39,392 nt of DNA, from assembly GCA_013425325.1 (NCBI GenBank), contig JACCLL010000085.1:1-39392 (forward strand). The letters are read 5' to 3'. Both the position numbers and the translations under genes were made by a program. Every line of letters begins with the position of its first letter. Positions within the stretch are counted from its first letter, which is position 1. This document shows, piece by piece, positions 8,629-36,639 of the stretch. The stretch comes from Candidatus Micrarchaeota archaeon (lineage in GTDB: Archaea > Micrarchaeota > Micrarchaeia > Norongarragalinales > UBA8480). Below the pieces are notes generated by a model. The model worked only from the letters and a program-made list of their open reading frames with translations. It had not been told where the DNA came from and ran no database searches.

Positions 8629-8633
8629 TAGTT

Positions 8634-15726: not shown

Positions 15727-16194
15727 TTAGCGCCGGATTTTCGTCCAGATTTTCTTGAACCACGCGCCGCGCGCTTGTTTCTTGCGGAGCTTGAGTTCCA
15801 GTCCGCGGGTGTACGCCTGCGCGTAGCTGCGGTGAAGCTTTGCTTCTTCCTGATAGTTGGTAATGGCTTTTTCGACCAGCGACTTGGCCGTGCTCGGGTC
15901 CACTAAGTGGGCTTGCGAAATTACGTGGTGCTTCGTTGCCTCGAAGAGCCTCTTTTTCTCGGGAGATTCCTTTATCACGCGAGCCGTCAGGTCCTTCGTC
16001 CAGTTGTGTATAAAGTGGTTTTTGTTGCCGTGAATGAAATTAGCTTTCTTCTCGCTTTCCTCGGCCATTGCCAAGTGCCTTTCAACTGCCTTCTGGGTTC
16101 CCTTGATAGTAACTTTCGTCATGACCAAGGGCTTGTTGAACTTTGCCGGCTCTCTTTTCGCGAGAGCGGCTTCGGCTGGTTTCGCGGGCTCCAT
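15727..16194 (-). CDS. Basic helical hypothetical protein with an amphipathic C-terminus
   Basis: AAGGTGA SD at 16201-16207; ATG 16194 (or TTG 16197); TATA TTTTATAT at 16229-16236; ends ARGAWFKKIWTKIRR. Confidence 0.8.
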   Translation of the reverse strand: MEPAKPAEAALAKREPAKFNKPLVMTKVTIKGTQKAVERHLAMAEESEKKANFIHGNKNHFIHNWTKDLTARVIKESPEKKRLFEATKHHVISQAHLVDPSTAKSLVEKAITNYQEEAKLHRSYAQAYTRGLELKLRKKQARGAWFKKIWTKIRR

Positions 16195-16228
16195 CAAAAA
16201 TCACCTTGCACTACTAGTGTCGCGAACG

Positions 16229-16269
16229 ATATAAAATGGTTTGCTGTCGAGGCAAAAAGGATTTATTAA
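16229..16269. promoter_or_regulatory. Divergent TATA boxes
   Basis: Minus-strand TTTTATAT at 16229-16236. Plus-strand AAAAAGG+ATTTATTAA at 16254-16269, then a GGAGG SD before ATG 16314. Confidence 0.5.
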
Positions 16270-16313
16270 GCTGAAAAACCAACAGTTTTCCAAGTTAATG
16301 CGGAGGCAGCAAA

Positions 16314-17849
16314 ATGGAGAAATCAAGGTTTCCTCTCAAACTGGTAGGAATAGAGGGAGAGCTAAAGGGAAAGGAAATAGTCTTAAACCGCGAACACTCG
16401 AGCATCGGAACCAAGAAAGGATTCCACATACGCCTTTTGAAAGACCGCCGCATAGATGCCTTCCACGCCACGATAGAACGACGCGAGGGACCCAACGGCT
16501 TTGCGTACTCCATTTCCCCACGAGACGGCCTCGTTTTCTTAAACCACGATTTTATCTTTGACCGACGGCCCCTAAAGTACGGCGACGAAATAAAAGTAGG
16601 CAGAACGAAATTCGTATTACAAAAACACTACCAGCCAGAGTTCACGGACCAGGAAGTGCAGGACTTCTTCCTAAAAACCGCGGGAACGGCGCACGTTTGG
16701 TTCCCGCCCGCACTGAAGAAAAAAATATACTCCGCGTGGACTGTTGAAAAAGCAACAGGCTATTTTCTCCCAGACCGACTTAAGGAAAACGAGATTGCCC
16801 AGGCGGCGACCGCCGCGGAAACAATAGTGTCGGCCCTTGAAAAAGCCGGCGCGACGGGCGTAGGCCACAAAATAGTTAACAGCGTAATGAAAAAAGCAAA
16901 CGAAGCCATAACCCCCTCGGAAGCCATTAACGCACTAGAGTCGCTTGTTCCAATAGCCAAGCAAATTCCCTCGATAGTAAATCAGAGCGAGGCCTACACC
17001 TACTCGGACTTGGCCAAAAAATACCTCGATGACCAAGTAAAAAAACTTGCGGCGTTCCCCGACCAAGAACTAGACAAGACGAAAACGCCTCCAGAAATAA
17101 TAAAAGAGATTCACGCCCGCGGAGTCACTCCGGAAATACAGACACGAAGCGGCGAACCCACCTTAGTCCTGACGCTGCCAGAAATAACGCCCAGAGACAT
17201 GAGGGCAATGAAAGCGGAAATAGGCTGGGAAGCCGAATACCCGCAGTACGCGGCACGAATTGCAACCGACACGGCCACCGACTTGTTCTCCTCGACGCTC
17301 GACGCGCGGCACTTCGACTGGTGGCTCGAACATGAAAAAACCACCACTAAAAAAGGATGGAGCCTAGTAGTATCGCCGCGCACCAACGAAGGCACCAGGC
17401 TTCTGGCTAAAATGCGAACAACTATTCCAATGGAAGCCGGCAAGCACAAGGAAGCCGCGCAGGCCGTCATGGAAGCAATAGCGAAACAGCCCGTTCCTCT
17501 CGAGACCAGCGTGCAACTACTCGGAGAACCAAGGAAGCCGACCCTCATACTCAACATGCCGGCGGTCACCTACGAACACCTGAAGAAGGCAGGCTGGCCC
17601 GCCAAGGAAAAAGAAGTCAACGCCCACCGGGACGCCTTGACCGACCTCATGGCCGACCAAGTTAAAAGCAACCTGTTCACAAACGCGATAGACCGCTCCC
17701 ACTTCGCGGCAAAAATCCAAATTCCTTCCGTAATAATAGGAAACTCGGTAAGCCGGCAAATAATATTAACTCCCAAAACCAACGAGGGAGAACACTTGTT
17801 CGAACAACTCGCGAAAATAATTGAAGAAAAAGCACGCAAACGCAAGTAA
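16314..17849 (+). CDS. FHA-domain protein (degenerate pThr site) with a duplicated C-terminal domain
   Basis: N-terminal FHA pattern: L..IEG..KG.EI.L....SIG......I.L....I...HATI...GLVFLN...PLKYGDEIKVG.TKF. C-terminal internal repeat. Confidence 0.82.
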   Translation: MEKSRFPLKLVGIEGELKGKEIVLNREHSSIGTKKGFHIRLLKDRRIDAFHATIERREGPNGFAYSISPRDGLVFLNHDFIFDRRPLKYGDEIKVGRTKFVLQKHYQPEFTDQEVQDFFLKTAGTAHVWFPPALKKKIYSAWTVEKATGYFLPDRLKENEIAQAATAAETIVSALEKAGATGVGHKIVNSVMKKANEAITPSEAINALESLVPIAKQIPSIVNQSEAYTYSDLAKKYLDDQVKKLAAFPDQELDKTKTPPEIIKEIHARGVTPEIQTRSGEPTLVLTLPEITPRDMRAMKAEIGWEAEYPQYAARIATDTATDLFSSTLDARHFDWWLEHEKTTTKKGWSLVVSPRTNEGTRLLAKMRTTIPMEAGKHKEAAQAVMEAIAKQPVPLETSVQLLGEPRKPTLILNMPAVTYEHLKKAGWPAKEKEVNAHRDALTDLMADQVKSNLFTNAIDRSHFAAKIQIPSVIIGNSVSRQIILTPKTNEGEHLFEQLAKIIEEKARKRK

Positions 17850-17852
17850 TCT

Positions 17853-18185
17853 TCAAACGCGATACACTTGAGCGTGCGGCACTCCCGCCACTTTCTTCAC
17901 GCTTTTTTCACCCAACGAAGGCAGTACCTTGCGCAGGCAGGCAACCGACTTTTCTCCAACCACGTTAAGGCTTGAGCGCGAGTCTTCCAAAGCGTTCTTC
18001 AGCATTTTTTCGGCTTCTTTTTCTCCGACTTTCTCTCCCTTGTAGAAGGAAGCATTTACCTTCAAATCCAAGACTACTTTTCCTTCCTCGAAAGACTTGC
18101 CTAACAGCGCAGCATCGCAGAGCGCAAGCACTCTGCGCGCCGAGCCGTCGGCGAAAGTGCGCGAATGCTTTTTGGCGTACAGCAA
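17853..18185 (-). CDS. DUF424 family protein
   Basis: VLALCDAALLGKSFEEG, SFYKG, LNVVGEKSV, VAGVPHAQVY. TTG start at 18185, 2 nt after the upstream stop; the ORF-track start overlaps the upstream gene. Confidence 0.88.
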   Translation of the reverse strand: MLYAKKHSRTFADGSARRVLALCDAALLGKSFEEGKVVLDLKVNASFYKGEKVGEKEAEKMLKNALEDSRSSLNVVGEKSVACLRKVLPSLGEKSVKKVAGVPHAQVYRV

Positions 18186-18187
18186 AA

Positions 18188-18835
18188 TCAGCTCGTGCAG
18201 TTGAAAGTGGAGACCATGTAGTCGAAGGTCACGGAGTCTTGTTGAAGAGAATCCGGAATTGCGGCCATCAACGCGGCCACGTACGAAGTTCCATCCGGCT
18301 TCCTGCAGTTGAAGAAAGCGCCGCGCAGGAAAACCCGTTCGTCTTGCTCGACGAATCCCCTTGTTTCTCCTCTTCCGGTCCAAACCGTTTTTCCGCTTAA
18401 AGTGGTTTGGTTGAGTGAATAGCCTTCAACTCCCTCGAAGGCGTTGGCTGCAACTTCTTCGACTGAAAGCCGTTCGTTAACGCCGACGTCTATCACTTCA
18501 GCAGACAGGATCCTGTCGTAAGAAGAAAACGGGTTGTTCGCGGTAAAACGCAGGCGCAGGCCGAAGTCCGGGTCGACGTCCGCGCGGTATCCCGCGGGGT
18601 AATTGATTTCAAAACCGTACAAGTCGTCGTAGTAATGCATCATTTCAGTTGAAGCAACTTGCTGCGGCAGCGCCATTGGCTCGCCCCGCGCAGCCAACGC
18701 AACGGGAGTCTGGCCGGTCATCTGCTGTGCCTGCTGCTGGACGTAGAAAGACATTGCAACCATGAAGACGATTACGACAATAAACAACGCAATCAGCGTG
18801 CGCCTTCCTCTTTTCGCCAAAGTACTCAAAACCAT
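18188..18835 (-). CDS. Signal-anchored extracellular protein, PsbP/Mog1-like fold probable
   Basis: Basic N-region plus TM (LIALFIVVIVFMVAM); YYDDLYGFEINYPAGY is a typical PsbP-like start; ends FDYMVSTF. Co-oriented 11 nt after the giant gene. Confidence 0.75.
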   Translation of the reverse strand: MVLSTLAKRGRRTLIALFIVVIVFMVAMSFYVQQQAQQMTGQTPVALAARGEPMALPQQVASTEMMHYYDDLYGFEINYPAGYRADVDPDFGLRLRFTANNPFSSYDRILSAEVIDVGVNERLSVEEVAANAFEGVEGYSLNQTTLSGKTVWTGRGETRGFVEQDERVFLRGAFFNCRKPDGTSYVAALMAAIPDSLQQDSVTFDYMVSTFNCTS

Positions 18836-18846
18836 TTTTCTTCTCC

Positions 18847-21800
18847 TCAGCTAGCGCTTTCTCCGGCTCCCCTTCCAGTTCCCGTGTCCTCGCGCTGGCT
18901 CTGCAGCCTGCTTATTTCAGCGGCGCCAAGCGTTCCTCCCTTGACTGCCACGTTGGTCAGAGGCGCGTCGTCGGGCGCGAACACCGACTTGAAGAACTGC
19001 TCGGCGTTAACGCGCGGGTTGTTTATTGCCATCAGCAAGTCGTATCCCTGTGGCGAAGCGGCTGCAAACGACGTAACCGGCGTCTGCAGCAGGCACGCGG
19101 CGTAATTCGAGTTGCAGGCGTTGCCCAAGTAGAACGACTCTTCCGCAATGCAGCCCTGCGCCGTCTTGACGCAGAGCCTGTCGACGGTCGAGAAGTACGA
19201 GTCTCCGGGACTGCCGCTCAAGTGGTATGAAACAATGTGCGACGGAACAAGCGGGTCCAACTCGGCTTGCACTGGCCTCATGTCAGTAGTAAACAACAGC
19301 GTCGACGCAACCTGCAGTGCAATCCTGCCTGCCTGCGCGCGGCGCAGCGCGTCCCTTGCCCGTGAAATCCGTCCTCCGCTCGCGGCAGCGCCTGCGTCGG
19401 CGGCAGCAGCCGCGGCAGCCTCTTCTCCGGCAACGCGCGTTGCCGCTTCGGCGGCGGGAGTGCGGATTACCGAACGCTCTATCAGGTTAGTCGTTTCTAC
19501 CGCTCGGGCGGTAGTGAGCAGTTGTTGGTCTAACAGTCCTGCGGGCGAGTTGACAAAACCCGGCGTGCGCCATCGTTGAACGACTTGTCTTGCCACGTCT
19601 TCTGTGATGGTAGTAGTTGTAGGCAAGCCGGAAGTGCGTGCCAAGAAAGTTCTCTGGAAGTTTCCTTCAACGAATTGCGCGAGGCTGCCCTGTGACTCGG
19701 CTTCGGCAAGTAATTGTTCGAAAGCCATTCCAGGAGTGAGTTGCCCGTTGCTCGCAAATACTCTTTGCGCTATTTCAGCGCGGATTGGCGCGGGCGCGGC
19801 AGTAAGAGGAGATTGAGTGTAAAGCATGGTGTAGCCCCTGCCTCCCGCGGTACCGATGCCGTTTACGTTACCCATTTCACTAGCCAAAGCAACGTCATCG
19901 ATAATGTTCGCCGGAAGCCCTTGGGTTACCGTGACTCTGCTGAACGTGCCTGCGTCAATTAGTTCATCCGCGCCCCTCCTGAACAAAATGCGCAGTTCTC
20001 CTGCCGCAGTTCTTTCGACTGCAGCGTCGCCCACTAGCTGCCTCAGAAAATCTTCGGTTCTCTGCGCTCCAAGCACGCGAGCCCTGGCTAATCCAGTGAT
20101 TGCCGCATCGTCAGTCAAGGAAACGGCTTGCAGGCCGTGTTCTTGAGCGATTCCGTTCAGCGTATTCTGCGGCAGCCCCGCAAGTCTCGTTGCTTCCGCT
20201 TGAACCAGCGCGTCTTGCGCTTCACGCAAGGCCACGTCGGCAGCGGCCCCGCCCCTGACGCGGTTTCCTATTTCCCCGGCGAGGGCGCCGTCGGCAACTA
20301 TTCCGTTTGCCGCAAAGAAGGCAGCCAAGTCCGCTTCCGCTCCGGCAACGGCAGTGGGCGCGGTTGTTTGCGCAACTGCTTCCGCGGGCGTGGCCTTAAT
20401 TCTTGAGGCGTAAACTGCGCTTGCCGCAAGCGGAACCGTGGCCGAACTGGTTTCGCTAGCGTCCGAAGCAAGCAGGTTGACTGCCGCGCTGGTGCCGCCG
20501 GCAATTCCGGCTAAAACCAGTCCGCTGCGAAGCGCCTGGCGGCGCGTAATGTCTTCTGCAGTCCTCGTGACTATATTACTGCCTACTCTCGCGGCAAGGC
20601 CTCTTCCCAACGCAACTTGTCCTCCGGTGGGCAGCAGTGCGCTGACTATTCCGTATATTCCGGATGAAATGCAGTCGTTGACCATTCCACAAACGGCTCC
20701 GCCTGGCGGCGAAGTAGCCGTTTCGGCTATGCCCATGCCGGCGCATATTGCGACTGCCTGTGCCATGCCTTGGGCAACGCGTATGCACACGCCTTGCCCG
20801 CCTGGAATCAAGCAGGACGCCAGAAGGCCAGTGCCGATGCCGTACATGGTTCCGAGAATGTATTTTCCGTGGTCCCAGCAGAACTCGCCGTCGTCGTAGT
20901 AAGCAGCCGGCGCGGCGTAGTGTTCCTGGCCGCCGTACAAGTACTGGTACAACGACGTTGCCGCTTTAGCGTCGCGTTCGTTGGGTTCGGTTGCGTAAGG
21001 CCCGACGGCCATTACGCCGATGTCAAACATGTTGAGTAAAGTCGACGGACTCGAGAAGTCAACGCTGCGCGCGTTGCTCATGATGCGTTCGGGCAAGTCG
21101 AGGACTCTGCTGAATTCGCTTGGCCAGTCGGACAGCCTGTGCCCCACATTGACTCCGAGTTCGTCGGGCGAGTTGCCTCGCAGGAACAACGCGGCGTTGG
21201 CGAGGTTTTGCTCGCAGTCCTGTATTTTCTGCACGCGCACGCGGATGCCGACTTCGTTGCGCCAGCTGGCGTCGGCGTGAGAACCGGCGGCCTTGCACGC
21301 GTCGATGGTTGCAGTGACTTTGTACCACCCGCAGCCGCGCACGCTTCCGCCGGTAATGCCTTCGAAGTAGTCGCGGTAGCTGTTCGAGACTTGTGCGCCG
21401 CCCGCTTCCTGGCGAAGCATTTTGTTGAACTCGTCAAGCGACTGGTTTGCAGCAACTTTCTGTAAAATAATCGATTTAGTCAGCAGGCCCTGGCTTCCCA
21501 AGACCGTGTGCTCGCAGAAGAACGTGTTCGTTTCCTGCGACTTGGTTATGGAGTCCAGGTAGGACTTCATGTTCGAAAGGAATGAAACGTATGCGGAACG
21601 CGTTTGTTCGGCGTCGCAGAAAAACTTCTGGCACGTAATGAAACTCGTGTCCGCCTCGGGCATTTCTTCGACTGCGGACTGGACTACGACGCGTTCCTGA
21701 AGCGGGGCAGGGGGCTCGTCCGCTCCCTCGTCTTGCAGGCTTACTTTTTGTTTTGCGGCCATTTGCTCGCTTGAAGCGGCTTGGGTTACCGCCTGCGGGG

Positions 21801-24800
21801 GAGCGAGTTCGCCGACGGGCGAAGCCGAGTAAAGTTCGCGCGCTTCCGGCGTGGCGGGCTCCGGGAAGACGACCACCAATACGCTCTTTTCAGTCGAGTT
21901 TCCCGTGCGCGTTCCAGTGAAAGTGATTTTCAGGTTTCCGTCTCCCTGCCTTACGGAAGTGCAGCGCACGAGCTGCGCGTCCCCAGCGGACATTGAGGCG
22001 GGAAGCTCGCATTCGACTGGAGCGTCTCCGCTTGCGGAAATTTCCGCCGGCTCGAGCAAGTTGTTCGCAAGGGTCAGGAAGCGGTATTGGCCGGGCGACT
22101 TGAACGACAGTTTCATTGGGCCCTGGGTCCGCTCGTTGTTCCAGTCGTCCGCGTAGTTGACGAAAACGCCGTGCAGCGAGTTGTTGACGTCGAACACGCG
22201 GTTGTAGACGCAGCCGTTCCTGCTCCTTGAAATCTTTATTTTCACTGGAAGAGCCCAAGTGCCCTGCCAGTCCTTCTGGTTCTTTGCATGGAACGTGATC
22301 GAACCGTTTATCCAACCGTCTTTGGCGACGCAGCCGTTTGCGTCAATCCAATCCGAACTCGCGGCCGAGAGGCTGGCTTCAATTACGAGGCGGTTGCACT
22401 GGCGGTTCTGGAAGTCAAGCGCAAGGTTCGCGGGAGTTCCAACGAGTTGGCCCGAGAAGTAAATGCGGTCGCGGGAAATTATTTGGGAGAACGCCTGCTG
22501 GTCTATTGGCGACGAAATGCTTTCCACGTAATGCTCTCCCGAGTAGGGGTAGAGCAACTGGCTTCCTGAATTGTAGAGGCAGACTTCCTTCTTGTCGCTC
22601 TGGTGCTCGTCGCTAAGCGAGAAAGTGAGGTTGGCGGGCGAGCCGCTCAAGTAATCGCCGGTTCCGTGCACGCTGACCGGACCGGACGCGTCGCACGGCA
22701 GAATCGACCACTCTTCTCCTTCGGGAATGGTTGTTTCCCACAGCGTTGAACCGTCGGCTTGCTTGACTTCCCGGCCTATGGCACTTTCGGGGAAAACTAT
22801 TCTGCGGACTGACGAAACGCTTACGGCAACCGAGCCGCGTACGTCAAGCGGCATGCACGAGTCGAAGTCTACTTTATAGCGCCTCGGCGGTCCCTCGTAG
22901 CCCGGCGGAAGAATTATTGTCACCGGCTGGCGCTGGGTAATAGACAAAAGTTTTTGGTCGTCGTCGGTAATGTCGAGGCAGGTGTAAACCTTTATTTTAG
23001 AGCCGGGCGGAACGCGTATTCTTCCGCTCCTGCCGGTTCCTTCAAGGGAAGCGCCTTCGACGAAAACCGCTCTCGCTGCGGGCGTCGTGTGCGTGAACTT
23101 GCCGCTTTTCGCGCGAATAGTCAAACGAGTGCACTCGGACAAGTTTGCCATGACGCCGCCGGCGACTTGATAGGCTTGCGCGTCGGACGGGAGTTCGAGA
23201 ATCGTTTCCTCGTCGTACTGGAAATCCATTTCGCCCAAGTCGGTTCCCGTTCTTCCGAAGGCAACCGGAGTGTTGGGCGGAATTTGCGCGATTACTCCGT
23301 AGCCAGGCGCTTGCGCAATCGGAGTGTTCGGCGGAAGAATGACGTACGCATTGCGCAGGTTCACCCTCAAGCCCATTGCATCGGGTTGTTGCTGCGCGTC
23401 GGCCGGAAGCTGGATGAAAACCACTGTCGGAAAACGCACTATCACGCTGTTGCTCGACAGCGAGAGGGGCGAAACAGGGCCGACCGACTGGGCGTAGCGG
23501 GACGACATTACGAATGGAACGCCTGCCGGAACAACGGCCTGTTGCTGGTTTACTGAAGCCGTTTGTTCGAATGAAGTTCCCGACGAGTACAACGACGGGT
23601 CGCGGTAGTAAGCGGAAGTCGCGGTGGACGAGTAGTAAGGAGTATTGCCGTACGGGTCGTAGCTAAGCGAGTTCTGCGCGCGTTCGGCCGCGTAGCCGCC
23701 GTACATTGAAGAGCCTTGGTAGAACACGAGCTTGTCCTTCGAAGGCAGGAGCACTGGAATCGAGCCGTCGTCCGCAGGCTGTCCGCGGATTACGGTTCCA
23801 ACCGGGAACTTGAAGACAACCGGAACGGGAAGCGTGAACACGAGTCCGTCGTCCAGATAGCACCTCGAGGAAGCAAGGATTTCGACGTTGGCCTTGACGA
23901 GTTTCTTTACCGAAATGGACTGCATTGCAATCCTGAACTCGAGGTCCACTTCCTGCGTCGTGTCCTCGACTATGCAGCGGTCGTTCAGCGACTCGCGCGG
24001 AAGAGTTGCGGTGACGGTGAACTCGCGGGATTGCCCGGGAGCGATTTGGGCCGACAATGGCGTTATGCGGACGTTGCGCTGGCTCGACTGCTGGTTTACT
24101 ATTACGGGAAACGGACTGAGATTGGTTACGTTCAGTTTCTCGGTCTTCTTGGCTTCGCGAGGCGGGTTGATCGAAAAATCTATTTCTTCAGTCGACACTT
24201 CAACCAAGTCAGCCAACGCCTGTTGCTGAACAGAAGTCGAGGCGGTGAAGCGAACGTCGGCCTCTTGCGTGGTTTGCGCAAGCTGGCCCAACACGTGTAC
24301 TCTCCCCGAAACTTTTTCGGAAAGCGTCCCCGCCTTCATTGCAACAGTCAGAATCGCTTGGGAAACCACTGCGCTGAACCTCAACTGCTTTTCTTCCTTT
24401 GCGCGCAGCGTGAAAGCCGGTTCGCTCAGCAACAAATTAGTGTACAAGGGATTTTCGTCGGGAATTACCGCGGCGCTGACGCGCACGTCGTTCTCCAACA
24501 AGTTGGTCAAAGAAATTTCGGCGGGCTCCTGTTCGCCTTTCTCGGTTCCCGTAGTTACGCTGACTGAACTTGGTTCTATCGAAAACAGTTTTTGTGTCAC
24601 TACGTTCAGCGTTCCCTTCTTTGTACGGAAGCCTTCGGCGCTTACTTGGTAGTCGACTTCGCCGATTCTCTGCGGCTCTATTCCGTCTATTACGTAAACG
24701 CCTTCCGCGTGCTGCGCGCTTCCTTCCTCGGACGCGCCAGACGACTCGAAGGTTGTTCCGAGCGCGTCGTCCTCCACTCCCAACGAAACTCTTGCGCTGG

Positions 24801-27693: not shown

Positions 27694-27719
27694 CCCATGT
27701 TTTACAATGCTTTTTCGTC

Positions 27720-27742
27720 CTTAAAAAAGGAAAGGAAAAAAA
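27720..27742 (-). terminator. T-rich tract after the 2784-aa gene (terminator and/or TATA box of the next gene)
   Basis: TTTTTTTCCTTTCCTTTTTTAAG directly after the TGA; TTTTTAAG lies about 27 nt before TTG 27693. Confidence 0.45.
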
Positions 27743-30700
27743 TCAAATGCTTGACAACGGCGCGTAAACCCACGCGCAGTGCTGCTGCACGGCCTCCGTT
27801 CTTCCGGAACGCGTGTGGATTGCACGGAGTTGTAAGTTGTGCGCGTTCTGGCTTATCACCCAGCCTTCTTCGCAGACGAACAACTCTATTATGAAGTTAG
27901 CCCACGAAGACGAGACGCCAGTTAGCGTGGCAGTCTGTTCGCCGGTGGCGTCACCTGAAGCCACTTTCTTCCACACCCAACCCGAGGAACCGCTTGTGTT
28001 AACAGCTGCAAGGACGTAGACGTTGCCTGGAGTTGCCTTAAAGCGAGCCGTGACGGTATTGCCTTGGCTTTGGAATTCAGCGCCGTCAATTGAAACGTCC
28101 CCGTCGCCACTCTGCGAGTGGCTTCCAATTGCTCTCGACCATCCGGAGGTGTACGTAAAGGAAGGTTGAGCGCTAATTGCTGGTTGGCTGCTCGACGGCT
28201 GCGCAAGTCCGCCGCCGGCTTCGACTGCAGGAACTTGCGGAATAGTGTACTCCAACAAGTTAGCCTGCATTCCGATGACGCTTACGCGCACAATTGTTTG
28301 GCCGTTATCGTCGCTGTTCAGTTGCTTGAGGCCTATGGCAAGAAGCAGCGTGTCTCCGAACGAGTTCGACTTCAAGTCTATTCCAGTACAGCCGGCGTCA
28401 CGATTCGCAGGCACGTCGGAGTGGCCGAGCAAAGCGATTCCGGAGTAAGTGCAGGTTTGCGTCCGGTCCGACTGGCCGGATGTTTTCTTGATCACATCTA
28501 TTTGTATTTTGCGGTTTGCTTTCACAAACGCGAAAGCAGGATAGGCTCGTGTAAATGAGGGTTGGTTTCCCCACGCGAAGATTATGTTCGGCTGGAATTC
28601 AACCGTCAAGCCGCACGTCGCAAAGGATGAAAGGGGACATGCGAGGTCGTAGTCGAATGCCGTAAACGCAGGCACGTGAATAGAGGTTACTGCAGACGTG
28701 GTTGGTGCCGACGGCTGCGTTGGCGGCCGTGGTTCGACAATGCGCAAGTGAGTAAGGCTGGCTCCGGCTGGGGTAATCTCTGCGCCCGGACAGCGTGCAA
28801 CTAGTTCGAAGGGTTCCTGGCTCTGCGACAGTATAATCGTCTTGCAAGGCAGGTTAGTTCCGCGGAAGTAGCTCAAGTCGTACGACTCGTCTGCGAAGTA
28901 CTGCAAAACGGCCTTCGTGAAGTTCAAAGCACTGTCGTCTTGCGCAACGCCGGCGGGGTATGCCCACGGGTGTTTCACGAACACTCTCAGCTCGGGCCTG
29001 CCGAAATCGCCTTCGGGCAGCATGCGGATGATTACTACGCCGTCGGTGGCGTTGATGCACTTCTTTCCGCTTACTTCGCCGCTTGCGGGGCAGTCGTTGT
29101 TCTGCCGCACGTCAAGCCAGGCCGGCGGAATACTATCGTCGTTGTAACCGCATTTTGCGGTCTCGATGTTTCCGCCCGTGTCCTCGCAGCTTACCACCAG
29201 AATTTCTTTGCCCGGCTTCAGCTCGGCGTTGGCGGACATGGGGGCGCTTACCGTTGTCGAGGTTGCAGAAGCAGCGGGAGCGCCAGTTGTTTGCGTTCCT
29301 GTTCCAGCTGGGGGCGTTTGCGTTCCAGTCGACGGCGAGCTCAGATCGCTCGCAGTCAATTGAGTAGCTGGCAAAATTATGTTTGAGTCAAGAGGAATGT
29401 TGTTGAAAGATTTTTTGTAGTTCGTACCACTACAATCAATGCCCGCGAAACCGATGGTCACGTGTTCATTGTCGCTCAACAAGACACTGAACAACAGGGA
29501 ATCGATAGTAAAACTGAAAACGGCCTGGCCCGCTTCGAAAGTATTGCCTACTTCTGAAGCATATACCGATGTTCCGTCACTCAGTTCTATCCACGCCATT
29601 TGCACGTCGCCGACGCAAGGTTGTCCTGAAGGATTGTTGAAAATAGCTGAAACGCCCACTTCTGTCTCGGCAGGAGACAGGCTCAACGGCAGTTCACTTC
29701 GAGCGTGTGAAACGGTGGCAGGCGCCTGGCCTGTTTGCGTTCCTTGCAGGAAGCCGACGATGTCGAGTTGGTCGTAGTTGATTTCCGCGGGCGTGCCTTT
29801 CACTGGTTCAGTGAGCGCCTTGAGCTTGTACTTGTTTAGCGTCGGCAGGGTTGGCGCGTCGCTGACTTGCACTTGGTAGTAGCCGCTTGGAGCTCCCGAT
29901 TGCTGGTTTGTCAAGCTCTTGTAAGCGAGGTAGGGGAAGCGGTTTTCTATTTCTGGCGTCGCCAGCCAGTCGCTTATGCCGGTTGCGGCATTGCCTATTA
30001 CGGTTTTTATCCAGCGGTAGGGCAGCGAACCGAGTTGCTGGAACCACTTGGGCTTGTTCGTTAACGTGAATGCTCCTGGCTCGTGGTAGACTGAAACCCA
30101 GTTTTGTCCGTTTGCGTCAGTGTTTCCGGCGGCTATTTGGTCGAGGATGCCCTGCAAGTCCTTTGCCCTGAGCTGCAGCAAGCGCGGCCCGTTTCCTTCC
30201 TCTCCTCCGCCGAGCGTGTCTGCTTTCTTCAGGACCAGGAAGAAGTCGGGCAACTCGCCTTGCTGGTCTATCAACGGCGACGCCGGCGGGGTAACCAATT
30301 GTCCCTGGCCCAGCGCTCTTCCAAACGCCTGGCGCAAGAGGTTTCTGGCGCGCTCGTCTCCGAAAATGCTTTCCATTGACTGCAGGTTTTGTCCCATTTG
30401 AGTTCCTTGGCAGAACACGTTCTCTATTGCGGTCCCAGCCGAGGAAGTTATTGAACCGAAGTTGACGTTTTCGTCTTCGCCTTCCTCTATTTCCTCTTCT
30501 TCTTCGTCGTAATTGTTGTCGCTGCAGGCTTTCATGAACGTCTTGCACACTGCTTCGCTCGCGCGGTCGGCAATCATTTCCGTAGCCAACTGGTTCAAGC
30601 AGTTTTCGAATCCCGCGTCCTGCAAGTCAGTGAAACTGCGTTTGTAGACGTACGGCACTTGAGAATAGGACTTGACTACGCCCAAGCGCACGGCTTCCTG

Positions 30701-33700
30701 GAACGCGTTCGCAGAAGCGTTGGTTTCGGCTTGCTTGCAGTACTTGGTTCCACTGCACTGCAAGGCAGTCTGCACGTCGTTCGAAGTGGCTGCGCCGCCA
30801 ACGCTTATTTTCTCTTTATCGTTGCCTACGCTTCCGACTACGTCGTAGTTAAGCAACTCGCTGTCTGTGATGGACGAAGGAATAGTAACGGAAGTGACGG
30901 GGGTTGTTAGTGTTAGCGTGAGTGGAACCGGCAGGGGCTGGTCTCCTATTTGCGTTACGTTTACAGTCAAGTCGCTTGCGGAAACCGAGGCGAAGCTTAG
31001 CTTGACTCTGTCTTCGCCGCTTCCCGGAAGATTCTGTTCAGTCTCGATTTGGCCGGTATTTTCGTTCACTCCCTTCATGCTGAAGACGACGGCTTTGTTG
31101 GGAATGTTGTTTATCAAGAAATATGGCTCCACCTGTTCCGTGTTGGGCTTGGCGCGAGTGACTATGTCTCCGCCCGCAGGCACTGCAAGCAAGTAGTAAG
31201 GCGCCGCGGGGTCGTCGGCCGGGTTGGTTCCTTCGACTTTAAGCGTCATGTAGTAATAGGATCCGACGCCGGTCGAGATCTTGAACCTGGCGCGTTTAAC
31301 TACTGGCTCTACGCCGAGCCGGCCGTCTTTGTAGACGTATTTGATGCATGCGTCGCGGTCGTTTTCGTTGAACAAAACCGCGAAGCTGCGCGTAAGTGGA
31401 ACTGCGGCCATGCCGGTAACTGCTTGGAATCCTCTGCCGAGAGCTTCTCCCAGGGAAGTGCCGGCGCCCATTAGTCCTTCCTTGTCCAAGTCTTTCAAGC
31501 GGTAGCAGCTTGCCAGCTGGGGGTCGACTTGTCCCTCGCCGGTGTCGGCAGTTGACATTGACACGTCCAAGTAAGGCAAGACGTTCATGTCAACGTTGTC
31601 GAACGCAATCGGAAAGCCGCCGTAGCGCATCATTGGAGTAATTTTTACTGTACAGTCGACTCCGCTAGAAGTAAACGTGCACATGCCAGGAATTTCCTTG
31701 GCCTGCGGCCAGCTCATTAACTGCTGGTTGCCGTAACACGAAGTGGGCTGCTGTAAGTAACCTCCTTGGCTGTAAGGACTTCCGCCATAGGACGAGCCAT
31801 AACCTCCGGTGCTGCCATACGCACCGACTTGGCCGTAGCCGCCTTGGGTTTGCCACATGCCGTTCGCGTAAGTGGAGCCTTGCGGCGCGCCGGTCCAACT
31901 CTGCGGAGCACAAGTTGGCATGCCGTTGTTGACGGCGCCGGTAGTCGACATGGCCGGGTTGGGGTACATCATGCGCGCTTGCTCGACGGGAATGCGTGAA
32001 AATCCGCCCAAGACGTTAACGTGGTAGGGAATGCTTGCAGCTACTTCCCACGCGCTTGCACCGAAGTTTACTATGTCGCCGAGCGGCGTTCCTTTCATCA
32101 CGTTTTCGCGGAACAAGCACGCGGCCATGAATCCCGAGTAGTAGCTCCAGCTGTGGTGCGGGCACCTGCTCTTTATTTTCAAGCGCGCTTCGTTGCCGTT
32201 TTCAAGCTTGCACTTGAACAGACCCGCTTTAGTGAAAAGGCCTACTACTATTGCGCCGGGGCCGAATTGCGCTTCGGTTGCGCCGAACACGACGTCACCC
32301 ACGCGGTTCTTGCATACGAAAGAATGGTTTACTGAGTCCTGGTTCCAGAACGACACGCTTACGTTAATTATTTCCGCGTTCGTGTCTTCGTTGATGTCGG
32401 TTGCGTTGACTTTCACGCGGGCGGGGTTGCTTCCGCCGTTGGGGTCGTACCAAATGCTTCCCTGCGCGCGGAAATAGAATTCAGTGCTGACGTTCGTCGG
32501 CAGGCCGATTATTCCCGCGTATTCGGTGCACAAGTTCGAGACTTCGTACTCGTAGTAGTAATTCGCTCCGGTCCGCGCGTCGCGCGACGAGAACGACACT
32601 GAACAGTCTCCGGGCGAAATCGGCGTGAGCTTCAAGCGCTTGCTTTTTCCGGCACGCAGGTTCTTGATTGCGTAAACGGCTTCGCCTTCCTCGCCGCCGC
32701 GGATTTTCGTCACTCCTATTCCGGAAATGTTTACGCAAGGCGTGTTCAAGTCGCCCGGCCCGACGCTGGCGATTACGTCAAGCGAAGAATCGAGAATGTT
32801 GTCTATAGTGACTTGCCCGCCGTTGCAGTCGAGCTCCGTTCCTTCTTCCGGCGAAAATCCGAGGAAGTCGCTGGTAGTGGAAGTGAGTTCCTCGGTTGTC
32901 TCGGCGTAGCCCTCCTTCCTTATTTTTATAATGAATATTCCAGGTGCCTTGGTTCGAATCTTGGGAATCTTGTAATAACCGTCGAGGCCGTTGTCTTCGG
33001 ACGCGTCGCCGACCGTTGCCGCAGGCGGTTCGCCGGCGAACGGCGCTCCGTCTGCTTCGTCGTCTGTTTCCTCTAAGGATATTCTGGCGTCTTCAATCGG
33101 CTGCTGTTCTCCCGAAAGAATGCGCAGCCTCACGTCTTTTTTCTTGCCTACCTCGAACGTCGTCGGTGAAAGCTCTGCTAGGACCAGCCTTCCTTTTCCT
33201 TCCACCATTACGAACGGGTTGCTTGTTGAAAGAATTGGTCCGCGGGCGTCGCCGAACTCAACTTGCAGGCGGGCGAGTTGAGTTGGAGAAATTCCTTCTG
33301 CTTGAAGGGTTCCCGCAAAGTCGGGGCCTGCGCTTCCCAAGACGATTCTGGAGTCGAAGTCCGAGTTCTTTACCGCGTTTCCGTCGCCCTCGTAGTTGCT
33401 CAAGCGCAGCACTTTGTCGGGACTGGAAATGCGTACGTAGGCCTCTGCGGCTTCGATTGGAGTGAAGGCGCGTACTTCGTAATTAACGTAAAACGATTCG
33501 CCCAGGCTTACCTTGAACGGAGAGGGATACTTCGTTTCTGGGTTGTTTGTGCTGCTGAACGAAACGACGAGGCAGGCGCTGCCTTCCGGGTTGCAGTAGT
33601 ACTTTCCGTCGGTAATCGCGTATGACTTGGAGTTTGACTTGGCGTACAAAAAGTCTTTTCCGCCGCCGGTTTGCGCAGTGCCCAGTATGTCGTCGCGGGG

Positions 33701-36097
33701 CGCGCGGTCGAACACCAGCCCGGTCTGCGACCAAGCGCGGTAATACAGTTTAACTTGGTCTTCCTGCGAGCGGGCGGTTGGTTTTATGAACACTCTTGCC
33801 GACAATTCCACGGTTCCGGAAAGCCCTTGGTACTCGACGTAAGCCCACTTGAATGGCTTTCCTGCTTCGGGCGAGTTTAGCAAGTCGGTCGAGGCGTCGC
33901 TGGATTCCTTGTATGAAACTCCTTTTGCTAGAGTCGGCTGGCCCAGTTCCTGCGGCGTGTAGTCAACGGCGGTGAAGTAAACGTTTTCTTCCGCAACGTT
34001 TTGCTTGTCGCCGACGCGCACGAAAACCCCTTGCTTCTCGTTCGTGCTCGGGAAGTTTGCGACAAGCCTGGCGGTATAGTAGCCTCCTTTGGAAAGCATT
34101 TCGTTCGCGGTCACGTCGTTGCCCTGCTCGTCGGTAACTTGAGCCAGGAAAATGGAGGTCTGGTTTGCGAGAGCAGAGGGAACCAGGTAAAAGCTTTTCT
34201 TCAAAGTCGATTCGGCGGTCGCCGCAAAGGAATCGCTTGAAAACGCGGCGTACCCGGAGGCAGTGACTCTAGCGACGTACTCGCGGTTTGCGACTACGGA
34301 GTCGATGCTGCAAGCGCCTTGGCTCGTAATGCAAGAGCCGCTTGGTTCGCGCACGTAATCAATTTCAACAATGGCGCCGTCAATCGGCTTGAGGGTCGCG
34401 ACGTCGTAGACCGAGAACTCGGTTTTTCCGGTTGCGTAAGAAAGCGTTAAGGAAACTATGCGTTCTTCGTCCGCCGCGGAGAGCGTGAAGACGTCGCTCG
34501 TTCCGTACTGGTTGTGGTACCTTGCCTTAGCGTGCAAGTTCACGCCAACAGGCATTTCGTTGAACCCAGCAAGGCCGGAGAAGTCGGTTTCAATCGTCGG
34601 CGCTCCGAAAAAGCGTCCGTCGCCGTCCACCAGCGACACCTTGGCGCCGCTTACTGTGAGTCCGTCGGGGTCGGTGACTTCGACGTCGAAAGCGGCGTTG
34701 TTGCCTGCGAGCAACGGATGCAAAACCATTGCAGACGAAGACGAAGTAATCAACAGATTCGCCGGAAGGAATCCCGACGCAGAAGCAGTTGCATAGAAAG
34801 AACCGAGTTCGAATGAAGACGAGATTACGAAGGATGCGTTGCCTTCCTCGTCGGCGGCCTGGCTGCCTATCAACGAGTTGGTTGAATCCGAGTAGAGCGT
34901 CACTGAAGCGTATTGAACCGGGTTTCCCTCGTCGTCTTTCACTACGACGCTGACGTCGCGGCTGGTTTCAACAGTCCTGGCTTCCAAGACGACGTTGAAC
35001 TCCAAGTCGCCGTCGGAAGTTGCAGTCTGCGCGTCGGTCGTCTGCGGAACAAATGCTTCAGCGTCTTCCGGCTGCACTACGGCGTACACTGAAGTTCCTG
35101 AGTCAACCGCGTCCTCGAAGTAGAACACGCCCGTGCTCTGCTTGTCCGAGTCAAGGGGCTCTCCCGTCTCGTCGTCGTACAACGTGACAGTCGAGGAAAC
35201 GCCGTTGTCGTTCTGGTCTTTTACGAAAATCCTCACCGAAACAGGGAACGGAGTTGAGTAATCGTTGTAGTCGCCGTAAGTCGACCCGCCAGTCGAATCG
35301 CCGGAAGTGTCGAATGAAGTTGCGGACGCTTGCACTAACGCCACTTCAACTGTTGCAGTGCGGGCTTGCGCGGCCTTGGAGCCGTCGACGTATCCCTCGG
35401 CGGTTACTGTAAGCATTAGAATCTGGTCTAAAGTCGACAACCCCAGCACGGCCTGGCCTGTTGAGTCAGTATACTTGGAGCCGCGGTCTCCTCCCCTGCT
35501 TGGACTCGAGTAACTAACCAACGCCCCCGAAATAGGCGTGCCTGAAGTGTCGACTACCTTAACCAGGAAATTGTATGCCGCTCTAGCGGGAGGAGTCGGA
35601 GTCGCGCCGGCGCCCCTCGTCTGAAGCGAAGCAGTAAGCGAAGTTGGTTCAAGCGAAAGAGACACGTCCTCCTCGTAAGTATCGTAACCCGACTTCAAAA
35701 CCCTGACTCGGTAAGCCCCTGCAACTGGAACGTTTTCGAAAGTCGCGACGCCGTCAACGCTTTTCGTGCGCTGGAACTCGTTCGAGTTCCTCAAAAGAAT
35801 TACGTCAGCGCCGTCTATCGGCGTTGTTCCGCTCATCACCTGGACTTCAAGCGTGGTTGTCGCGCCGCCGATTCCAAAAGCGGGAAGAACGACGAACGCA
35901 ACCGCGCCGACTATTGCAAGGCAGAGCAGCACGAAGAACGGGAAAGAGGGCAGGCCATTGCTTTCAATTGGGTCGACGAAATACTTTACAACCGGCAAGC
36001 CGACTTTGTCGTTCAGGAAATCGATTAAAGCATAATACTTGTCTTCAACCGCGTAATAGATTTTCTTCAAGAAATTAGGTTCCTTATCACTGGCCAT
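27743..36097 (-). CDS. Giant (2784 aa) signal-anchored surface protein, paralogue of 18847-27693
   Basis: Same N-terminal motif and TM, CarboxypepD_reg-like repeats, shared Y.A....FV..G...KWA...G..E...R.P.D domain. Divergent, linker-separated C-terminal modules. Confidence 0.9.
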   Translation of the reverse strand: MASDKEPNFLKKIYYAVEDKYYALIDFLNDKVGLPVVKYFVDPIESNGLPSFPFFVLLCLAIVGAVAFVVLPAFGIGGATTTLEVQVMSGTTPIDGADVILLRNSNEFQRTKSVDGVATFENVPVAGAYRVRVLKSGYDTYEEDVSLSLEPTSLTASLQTRGAGATPTPPARAAYNFLVKVVDTSGTPISGALVSYSSPSRGGDRGSKYTDSTGQAVLGLSTLDQILMLTVTAEGYVDGSKAAQARTATVEVALVQASATSFDTSGDSTGGSTYGDYNDYSTPFPVSVRIFVKDQNDNGVSSTVTLYDDETGEPLDSDKQSTGVFYFEDAVDSGTSVYAVVQPEDAEAFVPQTTDAQTATSDGDLEFNVVLEARTVETSRDVSVVVKDDEGNPVQYASVTLYSDSTNSLIGSQAADEEGNASFVISSSFELGSFYATASASGFLPANLLITSSSSAMVLHPLLAGNNAAFDVEVTDPDGLTVSGAKVSLVDGDGRFFGAPTIETDFSGLAGFNEMPVGVNLHAKARYHNQYGTSDVFTLSAADEERIVSLTLSYATGKTEFSVYDVATLKPIDGAIVEIDYVREPSGSCITSQGACSIDSVVANREYVARVTASGYAAFSSDSFAATAESTLKKSFYLVPSALANQTSIFLAQVTDEQGNDVTANEMLSKGGYYTARLVANFPSTNEKQGVFVRVGDKQNVAEENVYFTAVDYTPQELGQPTLAKGVSYKESSDASTDLLNSPEAGKPFKWAYVEYQGLSGTVELSARVFIKPTARSQEDQVKLYYRAWSQTGLVFDRAPRDDILGTAQTGGGKDFLYAKSNSKSYAITDGKYYCNPEGSACLVVSFSSTNNPETKYPSPFKVSLGESFYVNYEVRAFTPIEAAEAYVRISSPDKVLRLSNYEGDGNAVKNSDFDSRIVLGSAGPDFAGTLQAEGISPTQLARLQVEFGDARGPILSTSNPFVMVEGKGRLVLAELSPTTFEVGKKKDVRLRILSGEQQPIEDARISLEETDDEADGAPFAGEPPAATVGDASEDNGLDGYYKIPKIRTKAPGIFIIKIRKEGYAETTEELTSTTSDFLGFSPEEGTELDCNGGQVTIDNILDSSLDVIASVGPGDLNTPCVNISGIGVTKIRGGEEGEAVYAIKNLRAGKSKRLKLTPISPGDCSVSFSSRDARTGANYYYEYEVSNLCTEYAGIIGLPTNVSTEFYFRAQGSIWYDPNGGSNPARVKVNATDINEDTNAEIINVSVSFWNQDSVNHSFVCKNRVGDVVFGATEAQFGPGAIVVGLFTKAGLFKCKLENGNEARLKIKSRCPHHSWSYYSGFMAACLFRENVMKGTPLGDIVNFGASAWEVAASIPYHVNVLGGFSRIPVEQARMMYPNPAMSTTGAVNNGMPTCAPQSWTGAPQGSTYANGMWQTQGGYGQVGAYGSTGGYGSSYGGSPYSQGGYLQQPTSCYGNQQLMSWPQAKEIPGMCTFTSSGVDCTVKITPMMRYGGFPIAFDNVDMNVLPYLDVSMSTADTGEGQVDPQLASCYRLKDLDKEGLMGAGTSLGEALGRGFQAVTGMAAVPLTRSFAVLFNENDRDACIKYVYKDGRLGVEPVVKRARFKISTGVGSYYYMTLKVEGTNPADDPAAPYYLLAVPAGGDIVTRAKPNTEQVEPYFLINNIPNKAVVFSMKGVNENTGQIETEQNLPGSGEDRVKLSFASVSASDLTVNVTQIGDQPLPVPLTLTLTTPVTSVTIPSSITDSELLNYDVVGSVGNDKEKISVGGAATSNDVQTALQCSGTKYCKQAETNASANAFQEAVRLGVVKSYSQVPYVYKRSFTDLQDAGFENCLNQLATEMIADRASEAVCKTFMKACSDNNYDEEEEEIEEGEDENVNFGSITSSAGTAIENVFCQGTQMGQNLQSMESIFGDERARNLLRQAFGRALGQGQLVTPPASPLIDQQGELPDFFLVLKKADTLGGGEEGNGPRLLQLRAKDLQGILDQIAAGNTDANGQNWVSVYHEPGAFTLTNKPKWFQQLGSLPYRWIKTVIGNAATGISDWLATPEIENRFPYLAYKSLTNQQSGAPSGYYQVQVSDAPTLPTLNKYKLKALTEPVKGTPAEINYDQLDIVGFLQGTQTGQAPATVSHARSELPLSLSPAETEVGVSAIFNNPSGQPCVGDVQMAWIELSDGTSVYASEVGNTFEAGQAVFSFTIDSLLFSVLLSDNEHVTIGFAGIDCSGTNYKKSFNNIPLDSNIILPATQLTASDLSSPSTGTQTPPAGTGTQTTGAPAASATSTTVSAPMSANAELKPGKEILVVSCEDTGGNIETAKCGYNDDSIPPAWLDVRQNNDCPASGEVSGKKCINATDGVVIIRMLPEGDFGRPELRVFVKHPWAYPAGVAQDDSALNFTKAVLQYFADESYDLSYFRGTNLPCKTIILSQSQEPFELVARCPGAEITPAGASLTHLRIVEPRPPTQPSAPTTSAVTSIHVPAFTAFDYDLACPLSSFATCGLTVEFQPNIIFAWGNQPSFTRAYPAFAFVKANRKIQIDVIKKTSGQSDRTQTCTYSGIALLGHSDVPANRDAGCTGIDLKSNSFGDTLLLAIGLKQLNSDDNGQTIVRVSVIGMQANLLEYTIPQVPAVEAGGGLAQPSSSQPAISAQPSFTYTSGWSRAIGSHSQSGDGDVSIDGAEFQSQGNTVTARFKATPGNVYVLAAVNTSGSSGWVWKKVASGDATGEQTATLTGVSSSWANFIIELFVCEEGWVISQNAHNLQLRAIHTRSGRTEAVQQHCAWVYAPLSSI

Positions 36098-36183: not shown

Positions 36184-36639
36184 GTGAATTCAACAGCACA
36201 CTTGATTGCAGGCTTTGCCGTCGCAATAGCCATCTCATTACTCTTGGCTCCCGTCGGGTGGGGCGCGCCGCTTTCAGTAGACCTTGTGGTGGTAGCGGGG
36301 TTGGGCGCGTTGCTCCCCGATCTTGATCATCGTCAAACGAAAATCTTCCGCTTTACGCTGGCGTTGTTGTTCGTCGCTGGCGTAATGCTCGCGTGGCCCA
36401 TCGCACCCTCGCTAACGCATTCTACCGACTTATTCCTCAACGCAGGGATTGCAGTCGCCGTCGGAGCGGTTGCTGCAGTTGCTTTCTTTGTGTTAAAGCC
36501 GCGGCACAGGGGGCCGACTCACTCGCTTGCCGCGGCAATCGCATTCGCCGCGATTGTCTTGGCGCTTACGCTGAACTGGGGATTGGGAATAGCCGCTTTC
36601 GTGGCGTACGCCAGCCACTTGGCGTTGGACCGGCTCTAG
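36184..36639 (+). CDS. YdjM-like membrane-bound metal-dependent hydrolase
   Basis: M...AH, GALLPDLDH, HRGPTHS, YASHLALD motifs with TM helices. Confidence 0.9.
   Translation: MNSTAHLIAGFAVAIAISLLLAPVGWGAPLSVDLVVVAGLGALLPDLDHRQTKIFRFTLALLFVAGVMLAWPIAPSLTHSTDLFLNAGIAVAVGAVAAVAFFVLKPRHRGPTHSLAAAIAFAAIVLALTLNWGLGIAAFVAYASHLALDRL

Follow-up and report, generated by a model that had tools for sequence, protein, structure and literature searches.

How DPANN archaea grip and exploit their hosts is largely obscure at the molecular level. The locus described herein raises that question in a concrete form: what are the giant proteins that a Micrarchaeota genome encodes side by side, how are they held at the cell, and what might they do there? 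The window (the whole stretch of DNA analysed, 39,392 nucleotides; contig JACCLL010000085.1 of assembly GCA_013425325.1, hereafter C25) comes from a Candidatus Micrarchaeota archaeon and encodes two consecutive giant surface proteins, P0001 and P0002, followed by a small protein of predicted PsbP-like fold, P0003. The giants belong to a real, order-wide and unnamed family headed by a new N-terminal module, which is sharply conserved, confidently folded and named by no database. Universal in one Micrarchaeota order, the family claims a sizeable part of a reduced genome, and its conserved core is the pair formed by a P0002-type giant and the PsbP-fold protein. In the reading that we favour, with reasonable though incomplete confidence, the giants are adhesin-like fibres with an uncleaved signal-anchor and a cytoplasmic handle that binds one shared factor.

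The genome and the giant array

The genome under study (G000; the labels G001-G036 denote relatives from the same Micrarchaeota order) is represented by an assembly of 863,371 bp in 105 contigs, with 53.7% G+C and a completeness of 88.6%. Genes near the array are archaeal in type (family B DNA polymerase, DUF424, M24 peptidase). The DNA sequencing runs that contain this sequence are sediment metagenomes. P0001, P0002 and P0003 follow each other on the minus strand as open reading frames (ORFs) separated by gaps of 49 nt and then 11 nt, and the translated masses agree with the two tandem proteins of about 300 kDa proposed in a first-pass annotation of the window:

27743-36097, minus strand: P0001, giant surface protein of 2784 amino acids (aa), 297.0 kDa, isoelectric point (pI) 4.6; ORF and translation, ATG start
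18847-27693, minus strand: P0002, giant surface protein of 2948 aa, 311.6 kDa, pI 4.9; ORF and translation, TTG start
18188-18835, minus strand: P0003, N-terminally anchored protein of 215 aa with a predicted PsbP/DcrB-like fold; ORF starting 11 nt past P0002
36644-39391, minus strand: giant A, a third giant of about 2350 aa, of which the C-terminal 915 aa lie in the window before it runs off the right edge

In G005, a giant of 2371 aa matches the window part of giant A through its residues 1431-1983 (33% identity, E 3e-67). On contig C84, giant A appears as a 1483-aa ORF (3-4451, minus strand), the last 45 aa of which are the first 45 aa of the window part; because of these 45 identical residues at the junction, C84 and C25 abut, with giant A preceding P0001. 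When the N-terminal 80 residues of either giant were run against all genome ORFs with phmmer, three further motif-bearing genes emerged: C17:4969-10413 (1814 aa), C17:12985-18075 (1696 aa) and C96:3868-4344 (158 aa). Taken together, the genes cover some 38.6 kb (4.5% of the assembly), which bears out the large genome investment supposed earlier. The notion of a pair acting as a unit did not hold up: the array contains at least three giants, the genome six to seven motif-bearing genes, and only the P0002-type is order-wide.

A conserved N-terminal module ahead of a single membrane helix

What the giants have in common is most evident at their N-termini, where the following elements were delimited:

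35942-36097, minus strand: N-terminal module of P0001, aa 1-52, with helices at 9-32 and 36-46 and then G-L-P-S-F-P; from alignments, AlphaFold2 and a conservation table
35879-35941, minus strand: membrane helix of P0001, aa 53-73; hydropathy 2.89, modelled helix 51-73
27490-27693, minus strand: module (aa 1-47) and membrane helix (aa 48-68) of P0002; from BLASTP, alignment and hydropathy

The shared pre-helix motif described in the first-pass annotation was recovered by BLASTP, with 30% identity over 119 aa between the N-termini of P0001 and P0002 (E 3e-9), and by a 5-sequence motif profile that matches P0001 at E 1e-42 and P0002 at E 7e-34. A Kyte-Doolittle scan found a single strong hydrophobic helix in each giant (P0001 aa 53-71, P0002 aa 48-66), in keeping with the proposed membrane anchoring; the orientation would be N-in (type II). 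That the motif might not be conserved was a further concern, which 149 cluster representatives from a wider search dispelled: E40 is present in 100%, E13 in 99%, Y17 in 97%, Y9 in 96%, P38 in 93%, G43 in 92%, Y16 in 90%, D21 in 85%, P30 and F35 in 84% each and Y32 in 81%, and the module ends with P45 (98%), S46 (97%), F47 (83%) and P48 (95%), followed by about 20 hydrophobic residues. Conservation of this kind is striking on proteins that otherwise diverge fast. The residue pair immediately before the hydrophobic stretch is R/K in 62% and G in 92%, and position +2 after [RK]-G is Pro in 98%.

AlphaFold2 modelled aa 1-165 of P0001 from a 43-row alignment with a mean predicted local distance difference test score (pLDDT) of 92.8, giving helices 9-32 and 36-46, a membrane helix at 51-73 and a beta-sandwich; Foldseek found matches for the beta-sandwich part of this model only. 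Three orthologously conserved variants of the module exist, one per array position. The first is the full, P0001-like form. The second, P0002-type, reads W..FL[ED]W..EKG[IL]P....LEE.G.P.LP and has orthologues in G005, G012, G017, G020 and G028, and the third, A-type, is a short form consisting of the helix plus EKGIPSP that heads giant A. No model in Pfam (E<=0.1) or NCBIfam (E<=0.01) matches the module, nor were ESPR, YSIRK or KxYKxGKxW models among the hits at these thresholds. In the literature outside supplements, no paper describing the module or the family was found.

The position of the module invites another explanation, namely that it is an extended, specialised signal peptide, cut off after the export of very long proteins, so that the mature giants are released or held by other means. 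It would then work like the ESPR, YSIRK and KxYKxGKxW signal extensions of bacterial giant adhesins. The module is confined to the very start of the protein, a single hydrophobic segment comes right after it, and its carriers are nearly all very long; in addition, G, A and S are common just past the helix. Several features nevertheless make this an unlikely explanation. The hydrophobic segment of about 20 residues is long for a cleaved signal, AlphaFold2 gives a continuous membrane helix with a short linker to the first beta-sandwich, and this linker is variable and lacks a conserved small-x-small site. Furthermore, P0001, P0002 and giant A lack a hydrophobic helix at the C-terminus and match no CTERM model in NCBIfam, leaving the giants with no other anchor. 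It is because of the membrane-spanning length, the lack of a conserved cleavage site and the lack of another anchor that an uncleaved signal-anchor is favoured. A generic signal would not be expected to show such strong conservation or so confident a fold as the module does.

Distribution of the family

The range of the family was examined at three scales. Within the order, 41 genomes from 11 families and 28 genera were searched with the 5-sequence profile (A1), and the motif was found in all 41, with 1-9 matches each, nearly all of which start ORFs of 1000-5182 aa, often in tandem. An even sample of the phylum, comprising 19 genomes of the order and 132 outside it (14 other families), gave 19/19 inside and 0/132 outside. 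These profile searches sustain the conserved motif and speak against the possibility, considered in the first-pass annotation, that the homologues are general archaeal S-layer components. The third search used a 14-sequence profile restricted to motif plus helix (A2) against 1.84 billion proteins and returned 878 cluster representatives at E<=1e-3, 364 of them at E<=1e-10. Of the 150 representatives listed, which reach 3689 aa, 149 have the start of the match at or before residue 39. The top match of that search, P0004, was rejected as a perfect 53-aa tandem-repeat protein unrelated to the family. NCBI names for the relatives, from Candidatus Micrarchaeota, go no further than 'hypothetical' or 'carboxypeptidase regulatory-like domain' protein, and 15 of 17 long family members carry CarboxypepD_reg domains near the N-terminus, with tips that are mostly unannotated. 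Judged by its sequence distribution, the family is specific to one Micrarchaeota order.

Short versions of these genes were also observed. At C96 543-4344 (minus strand), a 158-aa ORF containing the motif, the helix and one beta-sandwich overlaps the next ORF, of 1114 aa, by 20 nt in another frame, and motif ORFs of 158-175 aa recur in G001, G002, G003, G007 and G009 as well as in other assemblies (P0033, P0161). Either these ORFs are a genuine short form, or a frameshift has been conserved.

A common extender and divergent distal parts

Beyond the membrane helix, the giants share a long beta-sandwich region and then part ways:

32750-35878, minus strand: beta-sandwich extender of P0001, aa ~74-1116, common to all paralogues; from Pfam, BLASTP and Foldseek
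20362-21699, minus strand: distal domain of P0002, aa 1999-2444, a Cys-rich alpha/beta part followed by an apolar helical region; from a 16-row alignment
18850-19359, minus strand: C-terminal 4-Cys domain of P0002, aa 2779-2948; from an 18-row alignment (A5)

The homologous stalk of about 1000-1100 aa claimed earlier was substantiated: aa 346-1116 of P0001 align with aa 307-1080 of P0002 at 23% identity over 824 aa (BLASTP, E 4e-26), and both proteins contain beta-sandwich Pfam families. The extender of P0001 also matches giants of six other genomes by BLASTP. CarboxypepD_reg (PF13620) scores 75.3 bits in P0001 and 101.7 bits in P0002, above its cut-off of 32.3; P0001 has three such domains and an Ig_DR_A0283-like domain above cut-offs, while Big_1 (cut-off 34.9 bits) is passed by P0002 only (54.1 vs 24.8 in P0001). 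All Pfam families in the giants are of beta-sandwich type (CarboxypepD_reg, Big_1, SpaA, MG-type) and lie in the first ~1240 aa, and the NCBIfam scan added nothing beyond them. Foldseek gave matches to transthyretin-like domains (including carboxypeptidase D), CnaB and pilin domains.

In the distal domain of P0002, six invariant and two near-invariant Cys of disulfide type are found (16-row alignment A3), and the apolar region is rich in Gly, Ala, Ser and Thr, with 6-14% charged residues compared with mostly 20-25% before it. Together with aa ~2000-2440, the last ~170 aa are the best-kept parts of the protein, with C63, C70, C82 and C89 of the C-terminal domain conserved across 18 rows. Invariant Cys in the distal parts fit an extracellular location. 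The later C...(F/Y)C resemblance between the two giants, suggested in the first-pass annotation, was not upheld: no BLAST or phmmer high-scoring segment pair joins the regions, and profile-profile alignment with hhalign covered 34 columns at 3% probability (P 0.014) with segments pre-cut in register. Searches of PDB sequences with P0001, P0002 and a 572-aa protein encoded nearby (see below) returned nothing meaningful.

The distal parts differ in how widely they are conserved. Matches to the C-terminal 1709 aa of P0002 occur inside giant ORFs of 31/41 relatives in 20/28 genera, whereas the C-terminal 1635 aa of P0001 are matched in 11/41, mostly within its own family; a homologue search with aa 1990-2948 of P0002 returned 4 close relatives. 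As far as sequence can tell, the P0002-type is the order-wide conserved giant and the fixed end of the array, and P0001 is a family-restricted paralogue. In G012 and G022, lone P0002-type giants of about 5182/5178 and 5172 aa, respectively, were observed, still with the PsbP-fold gene after them (L035, G012:C2, 2383-17919; G022:C8 near 13106-28622).

These patterns bear on whether P0001 and P0002, together with giant A, form one heteromeric bridging structure with their modules docked side by side on an inner partner. The first-pass annotation proposed a heteromer that crosses the S-layer, attaches to the host and docks on a common partner inside; all of these features are putative. The order A-type, middle paralogue(s), P0002-type, P0003 is kept in G001, G005, G017, G020, G023, G025 and G027, and the three array positions carry the three distinct module variants, as would suit such a structure. 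On the other hand, the P0002-type stands alone in G012, G019, G022, G028 and G036, and further paralogues lie on other contigs, so that we regard a fixed heteromer as rather unlikely.

Another possibility is that the giants are ordinary envelope proteins of the order (S-layer or stalk) and not adhesins. In favour of this, the S-layer family PF05123 has no match in G000, and the N-terminal beta-sandwich resembles, among many structures, the SlaB stalk of Sulfolobus (Foldseek rank 6). The PF05123 scan is insensitive in this phylum, with matches in 5/151 genomes and one above the cut-off, and a 929-aa ORF in G005 matches PF05123 weakly, so that a separate S-layer protein may exist. S_layer_N (PF05123) has no match in P0001 or P0002 at E<=0.1. 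Moreover, the known Micrarchaeota S-layer protein, according to the consulted part of its description, is a single, abundant 101-kDa protein (10.1101/2021.04.28.441871), and the giants occur as 1-9 paralogues per genome with divergent tips. An ordinary envelope role is therefore considered very unlikely.

The predicted PsbP-fold protein at the end of the array

P0003 has one membrane helix, at the N-terminus (aa 14-32, Kyte-Doolittle). Its match to Pfam PsbP_2 (PF18933) remains below threshold (E 0.13; 12.7 bits, cut-off 27), and its ESM Atlas model reaches template modelling (TM) scores of 0.63/0.67 to the PsbP_2 cluster and 0.58/0.66 to DcrB. A homologue is present as a single copy in 35/41 relatives; by coordinates, 26 of the 35 have it no more than 1 kb past the end of a giant, on the downstream side, often with overlapping stop and start. 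Helix and conservation bear out the earlier description of an anchored follower, and its PsbP likeness is that of the predicted fold. A complex prediction for the C-terminal domain of P0002 and the ectodomain of P0003 gave no support (score 0.01, mark 0.32) and was uninformative either way.

Gene sets linked to the array

Two gene sets recur around the giants, one on C84 upstream of giant A and one in the window:

C84 4564-9578, same strand as giant A and upstream of it: cassette of archaeosortase-family, coiled-coil and pilin-like genes; from ORFs and family models
4535-9137, minus strand: linked cluster of a HerA-like gene and about six small genes; from synteny and phyletic pattern
4535-6253, minus strand: HerA/DUF87-like protein of 572 aa with degenerate Walker A; from sub-threshold Pfam match and ESM features
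6814-7158, 7155-7436, ~7654-8022, 7959-8342, 8365-8631 and 8634-9125, minus strand: small membrane or unknown proteins; ORFs
36184-36639, plus strand: YdjM-family membrane protein between giants; Pfam PF04307, 52.5 bits, with a homologue in the same place in G005

The cassette begins with a 244-aa exosortase/archaeosortase-family protein (PF09721, 28.2 bits vs 25.7; TIGR04178, 35 vs 23), continues with a 185-aa charged coiled-coil protein and ends with a 566-aa Cys-rich protein whose N-terminus is pilin-like (KRSRA/FIAAPLIG...); a FlaI/TadA-type ATPase is transcribed divergently from it. The gene order is repeated in G017 and partly in G005. An archaeosortase homologue was found in 19/19 genomes of the order vs 1/132 outside, the outside match being weak; in 8/19 it sits upstream of a giant with the motif, at a distance of 1.5-2.5 kb. 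The T2SSE ATPase was considered as a fixed neighbour of the array and rejected, being present there in G000 and G005, with a tRNA synthetase in its place in G017. A type IV pilus-type ATPase by the G005 array (L032, G005:C15, 955-4038, minus strand) carries an intein.

This linkage raises the possibility that the module is a processed sorting signal: either an N-terminal equivalent of PGF-CTERM, cut by the archaeosortase at PSFP, or a long class III leader, cut by a prepilin peptidase after [RK]-G, the giants then being linked to pili. Apart from the distribution and position of the archaeosortase gene, the pilin-like Cys-rich protein and the divergent ATPase beside it would fit, as would the [RK]-G directly ahead of the hydrophobic stretch and the two A24 peptidases in the genome. 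Known archaeosortase signals are C-terminal, however, with the motif on the outer face, and an N-in topology would put PSFP at the inner face. Class III signals typically consist of a short charged leader, a [KR]-[GA] site and hydrophobic residues at +1 to +4; the nearly invariant Pro at +2 departs from that pattern, and a folded, conserved leader of about 40 aa is unlike pilin leaders. In addition, a second exosortase-family gene exists (C31, besides that on C84), and two secreted proteins of G000 (C55:9895-10890 and C75:322-870) that end in VPE[LT]HWL, a membrane helix and KKK are likelier substrates. Processing of the module as a sorting signal is accordingly judged highly improbable. The VPE[LT]HWL-helix-KKK ending itself has the sequence features of a conventional-looking, unnamed archaeosortase-type tail.

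The second gene set was flagged in the first-pass annotation (as 4148-9101) for a check of co-occurrence, and it proved syntenic with giant arrays in G005, G012, G017, G020, G025 and G028. Its HerA-like gene was found in 18/19 genomes of the order vs 0/132 outside, and in 8 of these 18 it lies, by coordinates, within ~15 kb of a motif-bearing giant. The small-gene run beside it keeps its order in G005, G012, G020, G025 and G028; several of these genes encode 2-3 membrane helices, and none has a family match. The 572-aa protein scores below the DUF87 cut-off (PF01935; E 0.07, 13.7 bits vs 23.2), which leaves it outside formal HerA membership. By ESM features, the ten matches listed (best per family set, of 30) are all P-loop ATPase clusters, nine with DUF87 and most with TrwB_AAD_bind, at a best score of 0.94. 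By these features it looks like a HerA/VirB4-type ATPase, and with a Walker A (GxxGxGK[ST]) that is degenerate in 5/5 aligned orthologues it is probably an inactive relative. Together, the archaeosortase/pilin and HerA-like linkages suggest a surface super-locus across the order.

Further content of these regions varies. In G005, genes for DUF424, several small membrane proteins and a protein of 641 aa come straight after the P0003 homologue, without a change of strand. In the window, an 8.6-kb block (9222-17849, plus strand), not present in G005, lies between P0003/DUF424 and the small-membrane-protein cluster; it encodes two paralogous unknowns of 407 and 699 aa (identity 36-41% across ~210-270 aa), glycosyltransferases of families GT2 and GT1, which might act on the giants, and a protein with an FHA domain. 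Next to the HerA-like gene of G017, on its downstream side, come a 765-aa protein bearing an SLT (lytic transglycosylase) domain and an 897-aa protein that combines NlpC/P60 and SLT (L023, G017:C1, 5006-9860), murein hydrolases in an archaeal genome that are reminiscent of conjugation-type systems.

A bolder proposal connects these genes to the module. Every giant would be plugged by its module into an order-specific inner-membrane machine resembling a type IV secretion system, composed of the Walker-A-degenerate HerA/VirB4-like protein, the ~6 small membrane proteins and, in G017, also the two wall hydrolases with SLT and NlpC/P60 domains. At the other end, the conserved apolar helices close to the P0002-type tip would insert into the membrane of the partner cell, and the whole would serve as a tethered conduit between symbiont and host. 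We consider this proposal quite unlikely.

How the giants may be anchored and presented

The favoured reading, an uncleaved signal-anchor carrying an adhesin-like fibre, starts from the established genes, motif, conservation, phyletic range, predicted module fold, domain plan and synteny. The common plan consists of a two-helix module of ~45-50 aa ending in G-[IV]-P-S-F-P, directly followed by the membrane helix, then ~1000-1300 aa of transthyretin-/Ig-like extender, and finally a Cys-rich distal part that varies between paralogues. Module and helix together would act as an uncleaved signal-anchor that keeps the N-terminus cytoplasmic and presents the module as a conserved handle. Through this handle, all paralogues would engage a single common partner, either in the cytoplasm or embedded in the membrane, that serves to insert, position or retain them. 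Variable binding tips would be carried by the extender to some tens of nanometres away from the cell, and with tips held so far out, the proteins would act like fibre adhesins that touch a host or a surface. The arrays end in a fixed way, with a P0002-type giant followed by the PsbP-fold anchored protein.

Topology, absence of cleavage, docking on a partner and adhesin role, and with them the function and partner of the family, are proposals, and several observations weigh against them. The segment ahead of the helix is net acidic, so that the positive-inside rule leaves the orientation unfixed, and sequence by itself is compatible with cleavage past the helix. The evidence for the adhesin role is architectural: Pfam, NCBIfam and PDB sequence searches revealed no known ligand-binding domain past aa ~1240 in P0001 or P0002. 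Domain-wise AlphaFold2 modelling, envisaged in the first-pass annotation, succeeded for the module region and not for aa 1999-2444 of P0002, where the long helices of the apolar region were modelled with low confidence (pLDDT 55.6); a VIA-align search with that model gave generic helical bundles only (Z<8). Furthermore, the matching phyletic patterns of motif, HerA-like gene and archaeosortase gene describe one clade and hence count as one event, and among the sequencing runs listed there is no RNA run. The adhesin-like reading is retained because the plan of anchor, extender and variable Cys-rich tip is like that of bacterial fibre adhesins.

Comparison with known systems

The closest parallel to the HerA-like linkage is found in the SPEARE proteins of Nanohaloarchaeota (SVXNc_0300, BNXNv_0298). 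In the consulted parts of PMC10266531, these are described, like the giants here, as DPANN proteins of thousands of residues with Ig-like domains and a proposed role in host contact; VirB4/HerA-superfamily ATPase genes lie nearby in both, and the nanohaloarchaeal giants, linked to VirB4/TraG ATPases, are proposed as secretion conduits. The conduit proposal above would make the present system the Micrarchaeota counterpart of the 'straw' proposed for them. There are differences as well. In the same account, SPEARE proteins have a signal peptide of Sec type, beta-propellers and, within the chain, a VirB4/TraG ATPase domain, and measure 5-9 kaa (PMC10266531). P0001 and P0002 measure 2.8-2.9 kaa, occur in multigene arrays and begin with a helical module. 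In P0001 and P0002, Pfam (E<=0.1) and NCBIfam gave no P-loop or beta-propeller families, and no sequence relation to SPEARE proteins was found.

Within the phylum, 'Ca. Mancarchaeum acidiphilum' Mia14 encodes several very large surface proteins that take up a notable share of its ~1-Mb genome and are likewise proposed to contact the host. As presented in the consulted sections of PMC5498576, they are strain-specific and secreted, contain PKD, beta-propeller and CARDB domains and were in part gained by horizontal transfer, and that description mentions no common N-terminal module. The S-layer protein of Micrarchaeum harzensis, a 101-kDa PF05123 protein in the portion of 10.1101/2021.04.28.441871 that covers it, differs from the giants in possessing the PF05123 domain. 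Sections 9 and 10 of a study of Micrarchaeon ARM-1 by electron cryotomography do not discuss such proteins (PMC11329633).

Among tags, the module resembles ESPR, YSIRK, KxYKxGKxW and PGF-CTERM in being a short family-wide element beside a hydrophobic segment on large surface proteins; it differs in matching none of the tag models, in being N-terminal and about 50 aa long, and in folding confidently as two helices. Bacterial fibre adhesins (LapA and MpIBP of the RTX/BAP type; Gram-positive CnaB/SpaA-type) are built on a plan of anchor, extender and tip. The giants share with them an N-terminal retention element, a long beta-sandwich run and presumed distal binding regions, but have no RTX repeats, LPXTG or type I secretion system signal by Pfam. 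In contrast to these bacterial proteins, the giants are archaeal, and their anchor is a membrane helix with a predicted cytoplasmic two-helix module. The family extends the known class of giant DPANN surface proteins, and its N-terminal module is new.

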